Assembly: GCF_009931435.1 (NCBI RefSeq)
Contig: NZ_CP043414.1
DNA: 64,000 bases
DNA from: Escherichia coli
GTDB lineage: Bacteria > Pseudomonadota > Gammaproteobacteria > Enterobacterales > Enterobacteriaceae
Strand: one strand, 5' to 3'
A program made the translations under genes and the position numbers. Of the stretch, positions 4,287 to 42,348 are shown piece after piece (within the stretch, counting starts at the first letter, position 1; each line of letters begins with the position of its first letter). Under the pieces are notes generated by a model. That model worked only from the letters and a program-made list of their open reading frames with translations, made no database searches and was not told the origin of the DNA.

Positions 4287-4832
4287 GTAAAAAGCCTTCC
4301 TCGTATCGTGCAGAACGCACAAAACTGTTCATTTTTCAATCACCAGAGATTCACGTCCCGAACGCACAAATAATCGCCTGAAAAAAATCACCTGCTACAA
4401 TGATGTTAAAAAATACGTAAATTTGTTGCTGCGTTTTTGTTATGGAATGACAAAAGCGTGTCACAGATCAAGAAAATACTCTCTTTTGGGGGGAGGAATC
4501 GACACAAATTCCTGTCAAAATAGACCCGTATTTTTTCCATTGCTTCACAACGGACACGATTCAACAACATCTAATTATCCTGGAGTCGTCAAGGATCTGG
4601 GGTGAAAGGGCATTAAATGCTAATAGTGTTGATATTATGTAAACTAATGTGAAGAAACTTTTGTTAAAGTTGACAAAAGGTTATAGAAAGGAGTAAAAGA
4701 CCACATCAATTAGCTGTATAAAAGAGTTTCTACAGTGATTGTAAGGTTTTTTTTATTCCTCCCCATGAATCGATGTGGCGTCCATCTGCCGTGAAGAGCA
4801 GTGAATCTGGCGCTACTTTTGATGAGTAAGCA

Positions 4833-36458: not shown

Positions 36459-37348
36459 CAGCGACTACCCGCAATTTGTTGGCAACCCAGCCAGCCTTCA
36501 CGTCCGGCAATATTTCCGCGAACAACTTGTCCGAGCGGCAACGTCCCTGATAACAGTTCGCTTAAAGGGCAAAATGTCACGCCTTCCTGGGCTGCGCGTT
36601 TCAGGAGATCCACAAAATTATGCTGATAAGCGCAGCCTTCAACTTCTGCATGAATGGTATAAACCGGCGTGCCTTTATCTCGCAGGATGCGGTTGAGTAA
36701 CCAACCGTTAAAATCTTCAGCTTTCACATCCCGACCAATCACTTCATCCCAGGTGGGTAAGGTCACCGGAATTTGCGCCGTGCCGGGTTTTCCTGTTTCG
36801 AGCAATGGACGAAACGGCATAGCCCCACGACAATCGCTGTTGTAGCGCAAATGGAACGCTTCTTTTGCTTCGATCACCTGCTGGTCGGCACGCCAGCCAG
36901 CGGCTGCGGAGCAGGTTACCGGTTGGCCGATAATTTCTTCCAGGGTGCGAAGGCCGCGTGCGATATCGTCGACCATTGTTTGCCGATCCCAGTTACTGCT
37001 ATGGGCTTGCCAGGCATGGTGATCCCAGGCGTGCAGGCCGACTTCGTGATGTTTAGCCGCTTCACGAATGATATCGGCATTGGCATGACCAATCTCTTTA
37101 CCTGGCCAGGCCGTACCTGCCAGTAAAATATCCCAGCCATAAAGCGATGCCGCGTTTGAGCGCAGCATCTTCCACAAAAACTGTGGCTTCACCAGTCGCC
37201 AGAGATGGCGGCCCATATTGTCCGGGCCGACGCTGAAAAAAATGCTGGCCTGAATATTATGCTTACTCAAGATTTCCAGCAGACGCGGCACGCCTTCACG
37301 GGTGCCACGAAAGGTATCGACATCAATGCGTAAGCCTACTTTTGTCAT
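36458..37348 (-). CDS. arnD: Undecaprenyl-phosphate 4-deoxy-4-formamido-L-arabinose deformylase ArnD
   Basis: 296 aa polysaccharide-deacetylase-like protein. Confidence 0.9.
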
Positions 37349-39326
37349 GATGGTTTATCCGTAAGCTCGACGGTGCGCAAGAAGAAATCCAGCGTTTCGT
37401 CGATGGTTTCCTGCATATCAATTTTGGGTTCCCAGTCCAGGCAGCGGCGGGCATTACGGATGCTTGGTTTACGATGCTCTACGTCCTGATATCCCTTGCC
37501 GTAGTAGCTGCTACTTTCGACAACGCGAAAGCCCGCAAACGGTGGGAAGTGATGGCGCAGCGGATGTTTTTCGAAGCTCGCCAGCAGCATCTCGCCCAGT
37601 TCCTCAATGCTCGCTTCGTTATCAGGATTGCCAATGTTGATAATTTCGCCGTCGCAGCGATTGCCTGCATTTTCGATAATGCGATACAACGCTTCAATGC
37701 CATCCCGGATATCAGTAAAGCAGCGTTTTTGTTTTCCGCCATCAATCAGCTTAATCGGTGAACCTTCCACCAGGTTGAGAATGAGTTGCGTAATAGCGCG
37801 GGAGCTGCCAATTCGCGCTGCATTAAGGTTATCCAGTCGTGGCCCCATCCAGTTAAACGGGCGGAAGAGGGTAAACTGTAAACCCTCTTTTTCGCCATAG
37901 GCCCAGATCACTCGATCAAGTAATTGTTTAGACACCGAATAGATCCAGCGTGGTTTATTCACCGGGCCGACGATTAAATTAGAATGGTCTTCATCGAAGT
38001 ATTTATCGCTACACATCCCATAAACTTCTGAAGTCGACGGGAAGATGATTCGCTTACGGTACTTCACGCAGTAGCGGATAATGCGCAGATTCTCTTCAAA
38101 ATCGAGTTCAAATACGCGCAGCGGGTTGCGGGTATATTCAATCGGCGTGGCTATCGCCACCAAAGGCAAGACGACATCACATTTTTTGACGTGATACTCA
38201 ATCCATTCGGAATGAATACTGATATCGCCTTCGACAAAGTGAAAATGCGGATGATTCAGAAAACGGCTTATCGCATCGCTGCCGATATCCAGACCGTAGA
38301 CTTCATAGTGATCTTCGCGCAGCAGGCGTTCTGTCAGATGGTTGCCAATAAAGCCATTCACCCCGAGGATGAGTACCCGTGTACGGCGTCGGGCGGCGCA
38401 GGCAGGCTGGCTATTCAAGCGTGAACCTTGCACCAGCCCCAGTGTCTGCGCCAATTGCGAGCCTTGCATAGTAATGCCGTCGCCCGCCTGTCCGGTGACG
38501 ATTTCCAGCGCGCCATCGCCACAGGCAATCAGCAACGGCGCAACAGAAATCACGCTTCCCGGCTGCGCTGCGGATGTATGAGGATGTACGCGTGACGACC
38601 AGACGGTAAATTTTTGATTACCAACATAGCTGAAGGCTCCCGGCCACGGATCGGCGACGGCACGCACCATGTTATGCAATACTGCTGCCGGTTTATGCCA
38701 CTCGAGGAAGCTGTCTTCTGGCGTTCTGCGACCAAAACAGGTGGCTTCGTTTTCGCGCTGGACGATTTCCAGAATATTACCGTCTTTAATGGCGGGTAAT
38801 GTCTGCTCCAGTAGCTGGCGCGCGGCATGGCATAACTTGTGATGAAGCGTAATGGCGATATCGTCTGGCGCAATGGCAATGCGCAATTGGGCCACAATGG
38901 CCCCAGCATCGGCACGTTTCACCATTCGGTGCAATGTCACGCCAGTTTCCGTTTCACCGTTCACCAGCACCCAGTTCAGCGGCGCGCGACCACGATATTT
39001 TGGTAACAGCGAACCATGCAGATTAAATGCGCCTGCAGGGGCGAGCTGCAAAATCTCGTCGTGAATAAGATGGCGATAATAAAACGAGAAAATCACCTCC
39101 GGCGACATTTGGGCAATGCGCTCCACCCATAGTGGATGATTAACGTTATCCGGCGCGTAAACCGGAATGCCTCTTTCCGCTGCAAGTCGGGCAACCGAAC
39201 CATAAAAGGCTTTTTCACCGGGATTATCAGTATGAGTAAAAATAGCGCTAATTTCGTAACCGGCAGCCAGCAGGGCTTCAATACCGAGGCATCCCATATC
39301 GTGGTAGGCAAAAACGACGGTTTTCA

Positions 39327-39327
<1 letters not shown>
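37345..39327 (-). CDS. arnA: Bifunctional UDP-glucuronate decarboxylase / UDP-Ara4N formyltransferase ArnA
   Basis: 660 aa; N-terminal formyltransferase and C-terminal NAD-dependent epimerase/dehydratase ([10 protein letters not shown] Rossmann motif). Confidence 0.92.
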
Positions 39328-40298
<971 letters not shown>

Positions 40299-41456
40299 TT
40301 ATTGTCCTGCGAGTTGCTGAAGGGCTGTGATGACGCGGTCGGCATCGGCGGTGGTCATATCCGGGAACAGCGGCAACGAACAGATGCGTTCGCTATTCCA
40401 TTCGGTATTCGGTAACGACAGCTCGGGAAAACGCTCGCGATAATATTTTTGTGTGTGAGCGGCGCGGAAATGTAACCCGGTACCAATGCCTCTTTCTTTT
40501 AACGCTTCCATCAACGCATCGCGACTGATACCACAACGTTGTTCATCGACACGAATAATAAACAGATGCCAGGCGTGAACGTGCGGCCAGGCGGGAAGGC
40601 TTAATGGCTCAAAGGGGAGAGCTGCCAGAGCTTGCTGATATTGCAGAGCAATTTCGCACCGACGGGTGTTGAGGTGCTCTAATTTGGCTAACTGGGTCAG
40701 GGCAATCGCGGCGTTAATATCGGTCAGATTATACTTATAGCCCGGCGTTAAGACTTCAGCTTGCGGTGCACGGCCCCAGGTTTGTCTGTCATATGCATCG
40801 ACACCCAGACCGTGAAATTTCAGCATCCGTAGCTGGCGGGCAAGGTTTTCATTATCAGTAACAATCAGGCCACCTTCCGCACAGGTAATATTTTTGATGG
40901 CGTGAAACGAAAAAATAGCGGTACCTTTTGCGCCAATATGTCGGCCTTTGTAATACGTACCGACGGCATGGGCAGCATCTTCGATAACTGCGATGCCGTA
41001 ACGTTCGCCAATGGCGCGAATGGCGTCAATATCTGCTGGCGCACCGGCATAATGCACCGGAATGATGGCTTTAGTGCGTGGCGTAATGGCTGCTTCGATC
41101 GTTTCAGGCGTGACCATCAGCGTATCGCGGTCGACATCCACCATTACCGGCGTTGCACCCAACAAGGAGATCATATTGAGGGTTGAAACCCAGGTCAGGG
41201 AAGGCGTAATCACTTCATCGCCCTTGCCAATTTCCAACGCCATTAGCGTGATATGCATTCCGGCGGTGGCTGAACTGACCGCGATGGCATGCTGATTTCC
41301 CGTCAACTGGCAAAAGGCTTGTTCAATCGCCTGATTCTTCGGACCGGTTGTGATCCAACCGGATTCGAGAACCTCTTTAACTGCTGCGAGTTCCTCCACG
41401 CCCATTGCTGGTCGCGAAAAAGGCAAAAATTCTGACATTGCTTTTCCTTCCGCCAT
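40299..41456 (-). CDS. arnB: UDP-4-amino-4-deoxy-L-arabinose aminotransferase ArnB (PLP-dependent)
   Basis: DegT/ArnB aminotransferase; start ambiguous between ATG 41456 ([10 protein letters not shown]), ATG 41438 (MSEF, preceded by GGAAGGA) and GTG 41471. Confidence 0.88.
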
Positions 41457-41536
41457 TGAATACCTGTCCACTTATATTTGCTATAAAGAGTGTTGTGTAT
41501 ATTTTGCCATTTGGAGCGAAATTCTAAGGATAGAAT

Positions 41537-41553
41537 ATTAACTTAACCTTAAG
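41537..41553 (-). promoter_or_regulatory. Candidate PmrA (BasR) box in the arnB/ais divergent region
   Basis: On the arn strand reads cttaag-gttaa-gttaat, a direct hexamer repeat with 5-nt spacer resembling YTTAAK-N5-YTTAAK; about 85-100 nt upstream of the arnB start. Confidence 0.4.
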
Positions 41554-41745
41554 AAATTAATATTAGACGTAAATATTGAAATTTTTATATTTTTTCTTAT
41601 TTAGGCTTTGCATTTGGCAAAATTTTGAGGCATTTTGCCGGCATCGTAGGATTTTTAATATTACACCAACTGCTAATTATCGCCAGAAATGTCGCTCAAT
41701 TTCACGGTAATTGTCTGGTTGCGCTTGTCTATAGGTGGAGTTTAC

Positions 41746-42348
41746 GTGTTAGCTTTTTGCCGCTCTTCGTTGAAGTCAAAAAAATATTTCATCATTTTAC
41801 TGGCGCTCGCTGCAATTGCCGGACTGGGTACTCATGCCGCCTGGAGTAGCAATGGTTTGCCACGTATCGACAATAAAACACTGGCCAGACTGGCACAGCA
41901 GCACCCGGTTGTCGTTTTGTTTCGCCATGCTGAACGTTGCGATCGTTCAACCAATCAATGCTTGTCAGATAAAACAGGTATTACGGTCAAAGGTACCCAG
42001 GATGCCCGTGAACTGGGCAACGCTTTTAGCGCTGACATCCCTGATTTCGATCTTTATTCCAGTAATACCGTCCGGACCATTCAGTCGGCGACCTGGTTTT
42101 CAGCGGGGAAAAAGCTGACGGTAGATAAACGACTTCTTCAATGCGGTAATGAGATTTATAGTGCAATTAAGGACTTACAAAGCAAAGCACCTGATAAAAA
42201 TATCGTTATTTTTACCCATAATCATTGCCTGACATATATTGCTAAAGATAAGCGTGATGCGACATTTAAACCTGATTATCTGGATGGTTTAGTCATGCAT
42301 GTAGAAAAAGGCAAAGTTTATCTGGATGGGGAATTCGTTAACCACTAA
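41746..42348 (+). CDS. ais: Lipopolysaccharide core heptose(II)-phosphate phosphatase Ais (histidine phosphatase fold)
   Basis: 200 aa from a GTG ([15 protein letters not shown]); signal peptide; RHAER histidine-phosphatase motif; divergent from arnB. Confidence 0.85.

Follow-up and report, generated by a model that had tools for sequence, protein, structure and literature searches.

The closest described relatives of the polymyxin-resistance gene studied here are arnB (pmrH) of Salmonella Typhimurium, with the structures 1MDO, 1MDX, 1MDZ and 4OCA, and arnB of Escherichia coli K-12 (b2253), which encode the same enzyme with the same PLP-lysine motif, FSFHAIKN, and likewise precede arnC and arnA in their operon. 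The Salmonella gene also has the same MAEGK-x-M arrangement at its 5' end, with two in-frame ATGs. Dual-start genes as such are familiar, and the classic cases are infB (IF2 alpha/beta) and clpB, in which the two forms of the protein differ by whole domains. The two ATGs of arnB, by comparison, lie six codons apart, and the unconserved extension between them shows no function that can be recognised; arnB is thus unlike infB and clpB, as its two forms differ by six unconserved residues only. Closer to the present case are the E. coli genes for which tetracycline-inhibited ribosome profiling (TetRP) described two in-frame starts on one mRNA, arnB itself among them (Nakahigashi et al, 2016; PMC4909307). 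Here, we argue from sequence signals, conservation across enterobacteria, annotation history and the published profiling call that the last of three in-frame candidates, ATG 41438, is the main start of arnB and yields a product of 379 aa, a reading to which we assign a probability of roughly 0.7.

The window, a 64,000-nucleotide stretch of DNA, is part of the E. coli chromosome and carries arnB on the minus strand as a maximal open reading frame of 390 aa (40299..41471). The open reading frames of arnC (39327..40295) and arnA (37345..39327) follow downstream on the same strand, and ais lies upstream on the plus strand, so that arnB is the first gene of arnBCA... and divergent from ais. Judged by its sequence matches, the protein is ArnB/PmrH and a plain member of the ArnB family: it matches the NCBIfam equivalog NF008658.2 at 736.7 bits (cut-off 631), Pfam PF01041 (DegT_DnrJ_EryC1) with E = 8.6e-138 and the Salmonella ArnB structure 1MDO (1mdo_A) with E = 1.6e-216. 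The lysine of its HAIKNITC motif is presumably the PLP lysine of the ArnB family; the 4oca chain reads HAIANITC at this place and otherwise matches 1mdo. Relative to known ArnB there are strain-level substitutions only, and the -10 hexamer is TAGAAT here and TAAAAT in K-12. Over 521 nt of the promoter and start region, E. coli R32_14_1F is 100% identical, the K-12-derived strain EV36 is 98.1% identical, and 5,406 other complete E. coli genomes stand at 97-99% identity.

That arnB has three alternative starts in one frame was already claimed by the sequence-only reading, and the minus-strand sequence bears this out. GTG 41471 (41471..41469) would give a 390-aa form, ATG 41456 (41456..41454) a 385-aa form and ATG 41438 (41438..41436) the 379-aa form, for which the coding sequence runs over 40299..41438 (379 aa plus stop, 1140 nt); the GTG is 15 and 33 nt from the two ATGs, and all three therefore share a frame. 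A TAA stop in this frame (41474..41472, minus strand) directly precedes the GTG and bounds the maximal open reading frame, which makes any longer form of arnB impossible. Such a crowd of start codons is common and not statistically unusual: among the 42 open reading frames of at least 250 aa in the 64-kb window, five have at least three ATG, GTG or TTG codons within their first 12 codons, and 23 have at least two.

How do the three codons compare as sites of initiation? The motif GGAAGGA proposed as the Shine-Dalgarno sequence of the third start is present at 41451..41445 (minus strand), followed by 6 nt (AAAGCA) and then ATG 41438. Its duplex with the anti-Shine-Dalgarno sequence has an energy of -5.7 kcal/mol, and it shows what Shine-Dalgarno-led initiation calls for, namely complementarity to 16S rRNA over at least 4-5 nt, a spacing of 5-9 nt and conservation. 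The further claim that only this start has a strong Shine-Dalgarno sequence stands as far as the conserved GGAAGGA is concerned, but ATG 41456 is not wholly bare, as a weak Shine-Dalgarno-like AGGT (41465..41462, minus strand) lies 5 nt before it, with a duplex estimate of -5.2 kcal/mol that is reached only with an internal loop. We combined the anti-Shine-Dalgarno duplex energy, a spacing penalty, a start-codon term and the local unfolding cost in a simplified initiation model, which returned 0.06 for GTG 41471, 1.4 for ATG 41456 and 2.0 for ATG 41438 (relative units). The model sets GTG 41471 apart and gives no useful discrimination between the two ATGs, ATG 41438 being ahead by only about 1.5-fold in what is a crude thermodynamic estimate.

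A mechanism that fits these features would run as follows. arnB, which heads the PmrA-activated arn operon, would be read from an mRNA that begins at 41512; GGAAGGA (41451..41445) would recruit most ribosomes and direct initiation to ATG 41438, and the resulting 379-aa enzyme would have the N-terminus of the whole family. ATG 41456, 18 nt upstream and with its weak AGGT, would probably capture some of the initiating ribosomes in E. coli, and GTG 41471 would not function as a start. The extension that ATG 41456 adds, MAEGKA (ATG 41456 plus five codons; 41456..41439, minus strand), also contains the GGAAGGA of ATG 41438, is predicted to be disordered and looks dispensable; it is from these traits and from its variability that we infer its neutrality. 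AlphaFold2 places residues 1-19 of the 390-aa open reading frame at pLDDT <50, which is consistent with an unstructured six-residue extension and, since these 19 residues include conserved ones, is weakly informative on it.

We compared one genome each of 80 other enterobacterial species, with flanks, anchored on the invariant LPFSRP motif, and found the equivalent of ATG 41438 in all 80. The comparison of N-termini across enterobacteria that had been suggested as a check thus came out clearly, the Met of ATG 41438 being invariant. In 49 of the 80 species this ATG is the sole in-frame ATG, GTG or TTG after the nearest upstream stop, and in a further 15 its sole alternative is an adjacent ATG (MM); a stop lies no more than six codons upstream in 42 of 80, often as the TAA of a TAAGGA Shine-Dalgarno sequence. 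Before this ATG the median anti-Shine-Dalgarno energy across the 80 species is -5.6 kcal/mol, compared with -0.9 kcal/mol in control windows of the same loci, and energies of at most -5.0 kcal/mol are seen in 76% of the species and 8% of the control windows. The curated ArnB profile agrees: NF008658.2 has a length of 379 and takes the Met of ATG 41438 as its first position, with profile positions 1-378 matching residues 12-389 of the 390-aa frame. In the distant DegT family members 6blg, 2fn6, 4zwv and 3ju7, whose N-terminal numbering looks native, residue 1 aligns with this Met or lies a few positions C-terminal of it. As far as sequence comparison can tell, ATG 41438 is best supported as the ancestral, conserved start and as the best choice of N-terminus.

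The same comparison bears on the alternative that arnB translation in E. coli begins mainly or solely at ATG 41456, which would make ArnB a protein of 385 aa and reduce GGAAGGA to codons 2-4. An in-frame ATG at the 41456 position is present in six of the 80 species (E. whittamii, E. albertii, S. enterica diarizonae and three Citrobacter) and missing in the other 74. In six further Citrobacter genomes, including C. werkmanii and C. youngae, the ATGGCT is kept, but frame-shifted by an insertion of 1 nt (ATG GCT TGA), and two other Citrobacter have ACG or GAG in place of the ATG. ATG 41456 and MAEG are conserved in three Escherichia species and Salmonella, with variation at the third position of the Ala codon (GCG, GCC or GCT). 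ATG 41456 and the flanking TTCAATGGC are common to Escherichia and Salmonella, and as the remaining leader is not alignable between them, this retention hints at some selection on the AUG or its surroundings. This conservation and the AGGT at 5 nt spacing favor a role for the upstream ATG; against its being the main start, the extension evolves much faster than the remaining protein, and both the family profile and the distant homologues begin at the downstream Met. The Salmonella crystal constructs, which have 385 aa and begin MAEGKMMSDF, have been counted on the side of the upstream ATG, but they reflect a cloner's choice of start and not a native N-terminus.

As an observation in its own right, the out-of-frame motif of the six Citrobacter genomes forms a two-codon mini-ORF, ATG GCT TGA, about 20 nt before the arnB ATG and overlapping GAAGGA. 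Should the interval between the two ATGs tune ArnB translation in E. coli, a long shot taken up below, this mini-ORF could have a related role as a start-stop or in coupling.

The annotation record has moved between the same two codons. The 2006 annotation of K-12 used the upstream ATG, equivalent to 41456, and the 2014 EcoGene-based re-annotation placed it 18 nt further downstream, at 2365928, the equivalent of 41438 (PMC4909307 Table S3). The curated MG1655 record NC_000913.3 now again uses the equivalent of ATG 41456, at 2365910 (2365910..2367067, NP_416756.6), so that the K-12 start has gone from the second candidate to the third and back. PGAP, like the 2014 re-annotation, chose ATG 41438, as it did in 7/7 non-K-12 E. 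coli records inspected. The K-12 protein occurs in public protein sets at all three lengths: the 385-aa form is as widespread as the 379-aa form, with at least 1000 contigs for either, and 6 contigs have the 390-aa form. The ambiguity of the arnB start is thus an ordinary one, already on record both in databases and in the papers that re-annotated K-12.

Published initiation profiling speaks to both ATGs. On manual inspection of the TetRP data, arnB was called "4. multiple", that is, with signal at the 2006 and at the 2014 start (PMC4909307 Table S3), a call to be read with the caveat that poly-A tailing blurs positions beside A-runs, one of which lies 15 nt downstream of ATG 41456. By this manual call, ribosome profiling, named by the sequence-only reading as a check on its choice, would have signal at the equivalent of ATG 41438 and also at that of ATG 41456. 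In the automatic TetRP pipeline arnB came out as "no change", with the 2006 start retained, a point in favor of the upstream ATG, and the cells were BW25113 from glucose-limited MOPS chemostats (PMC4909307). A search of the text of N-terminomics and TIS (translation initiation site) supplements turned up neither N-terminal peptides nor intact masses for ArnB, and no arnB, pmrH or pbgP entry was present in the searchable supplement text of PMC13245402 (TRAINSPOTTER), PMC11005335 and PMC5576327.

Taken on both sides, these observations leave ATG 41456 unlikely as the chief or sole start of E. coli arnB. From conservation, the initiation signals and the profiling call we infer instead that the relative use of the ATGs favors 41438; the in-frame AUG at 41456, which is clade-specific, is probably also the site of some initiation in E. 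coli. The earlier claim that the 379-aa product is the translated one is upheld for the main start (80/80 species, position 1 of the profile, PGAP), but not for exclusivity, given the start in NC_000913.3, the TetRP call "multiple" and the estimate of about 1.5-fold.

GTG 41471 has a claim of its own as the first start-type codon of the maximal open reading frame. It would give an ArnB of 390 aa, a form that occurs in a few GenBank records, and it is kept in E. whittamii and in all inspected E. coli genomes. At the same position, however, E. albertii has GGG and Salmonella GAA. The codon is without a Shine-Dalgarno sequence (no pairing to the anti-Shine-Dalgarno sequence, duplex +1.3 kcal/mol), GUG is a weaker start codon, and in the predicted fold of the leader the GTG is base-paired (P(unpaired) 0.02-0.09). 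None of the K-12 annotations (2006, 2014 or current) and none of the PGAP records inspected use it, and its use as a start is very unlikely.

Does the choice of start codon bear on the regulation of the operon? The primary transcription start site (TSS) of arnB has been placed at MG1655 2365854 by dRNA-seq analysis (PMC12987492, Table 1), and by ungapped alignment this maps to position 41512 on the minus strand; in the same way GTG 41471, ATG 41456 and ATG 41438 correspond to MG1655 2365895, 2365910 and 2365928. With the TSS at 41512, all three candidate starts lie inside the mRNA, with 5' UTRs of 41, 56 and 74 nt, respectively. A -10 hexamer, TAGAAT (41526..41521, minus strand), would take its expected place before this TSS. 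Further upstream, CTTAAGGTTAAGTTAAT at 41553..41537 (minus strand) is a candidate PmrA (BasR) box, a pattern match with one mismatch, in which the hexamers CTTAAG and GTTAAT are set 5 nt apart (GTTAA) and span -41..-25 from the TSS, overlapping its -35 position. The PmrA box has been described as two XTTAAY hexamers 5 nt apart that take the place of the -35 element at pbgP, ugd and pmrCAB (PMC10570014), and PmrA binding and PmrA-dependent transcription are known for pbgP/arnB (PMC2565834; PMC10570014). The predicted box resembles these promoters in having XTTAAY-type hexamers 5 nt apart over the -35 position and no recognisable sigma-70 -35 element; its second half-site, GTTAAT, has one mismatch to YTTAAK. 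A sigma-70 consensus scan did not find the arnB promoter, a miss that is expected for an activator-dependent promoter. The sequence-only reading had held that start choice matters for defining the 5' UTR that contains the PmrA box, and here it has to be corrected: the predicted box is promoter DNA outside the 5' UTR and, lying upstream of the transcript, is unaffected by which start codon is used.

Position 41524 within the -10 hexamer varies between strains, the hexamer being TAGAAT in the window and in R32_14_1F and TAAAAT in K-12, O157:H7, Nissle and the other inspected strains. On the far side of the intergenic region, the start of ais is ambiguous as well: its longest open reading frame, from ATG 41689 (41689-42348, plus strand), has 219 aa, and PGAP and the K-12 record give 200 aa (603 nt). 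The TSS published for ais (MG1655 2365723) falls at position 41643, 131 bp from the divergent arnB TSS.

The leader itself appears plain. It had no Rfam match at E <=1, and it folds no more stably than shuffled sequence does (z = +0.37); two structures that we had considered, a 7-bp pairing of the 5' end of the leader with codons 4-6 and a small hairpin with the Shine-Dalgarno sequence in its loop, were dropped on these grounds. The leader also holds a 9-codon upstream open reading frame (41481-41510, minus strand; ATG GCA AAA TAT ACA CAA CAC TCT TTA TAG) that opens 2 nt past the TSS at 41512, in frame with arnB. It is without a Shine-Dalgarno sequence, and E. whittamii and E. albertii share its ATG, while its length varies.

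Within E. coli, 60 nt around the arnB starts are identical in 4,413 complete genomes, and the variation there is concentrated between the two ATGs. The majority haplotype of this interval (41453-41439, minus strand) is GCGGAAGGAAAAGCA, found in about 4,413-4,429 complete E. coli genomes (~82%), and a second, present in Nissle 1917, is ACGGATGGAAAAA[A/C]A, found in about 979-986 (~18%). The Nissle-type haplotype reads ATG ACG GAT GGA AAA A[A/C]A ATG; it retains all three starts and breaks the contiguous GAAGGA core. Between the haplotypes 3-4 of the 15 nt differ, which changes three of the five codons, all non-synonymously. In the next 537 nt (178 codons) there are 10-11 differences, with 7-8 synonymous and three non-synonymous codon changes, and the upstream leader differs at 0-1 of 56 nt. 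The interval is thus a local hot spot of divergence (Fisher tests, p = 3e-4 and 5e-3, both post hoc), and with all its codon changes non-synonymous it is unlike a constrained coding segment. We had considered that the Nissle-type Shine-Dalgarno sequence is weaker on energy grounds; this was rejected, as it too reaches -5.7 kcal/mol once an internal mismatch is allowed, and only the contiguous core is shorter.

What might such a hot spot mean? The broken core of the Nissle-type haplotype might shift initiation between ATG 41438 and ATG 41456, or alter the output of ArnB. That the 15 nt between the ATGs are a lineage-specific tuning point for ArnB translation is a long shot; if it were true, inducible polymyxin resistance might differ between E. 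coli lineages through ArnB output. A related proposal is that both ATGs are used to a comparable extent, with two proteoforms, or a ratio between them, that has a distinct regulatory or functional meaning. The TetRP signal at both ATGs and their similar predicted initiation strengths point that way, and the divergence hot spot could reflect tuning of the ribosome-binding site. The extension, however, has only six residues, is predicted to be disordered, varies within the species and is absent from most genera, and no functional motif is apparent in it. We regard this proposal as decidedly doubtful and favor ATG 41438 as the main start, accompanied by minor initiation at ATG 41456.

One genome shows a rearrangement exactly at this site. 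In E. coli ETEC1738 (NZ_CP122768.1; locus L088, 1539-2885) an IS4-family element of 1329 bp (annotation: ISVsa5 transposase) interrupts the arnB start, with a 9-bp target duplication, AGCAATGTC, that contains ATG 41438 and is equivalent to positions ~41434-41442. The insertion cuts the body of arnB off from the PmrA promoter, the Shine-Dalgarno sequence, ATG 41456 and GTG 41471, and PGAP nonetheless calls a 379-aa arnB from the duplicated ATG.

In conclusion, the practical value of settling on ATG 41438 lies in annotation and construct design. The same protein is public in three lengths (379, 385 and 390 aa), and the K-12 reference and PGAP disagree on its start. For translational fusions, scarless deletions and expression constructs, ATG 41438 would be the conserved N-terminus to use, and the region just upstream of it should be treated as its ribosome-binding site. 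For the biology of ArnB itself the choice of start carries little weight, as the two plausible forms of the protein differ in six N-terminal residues, unconserved and with disorder predicted for them.
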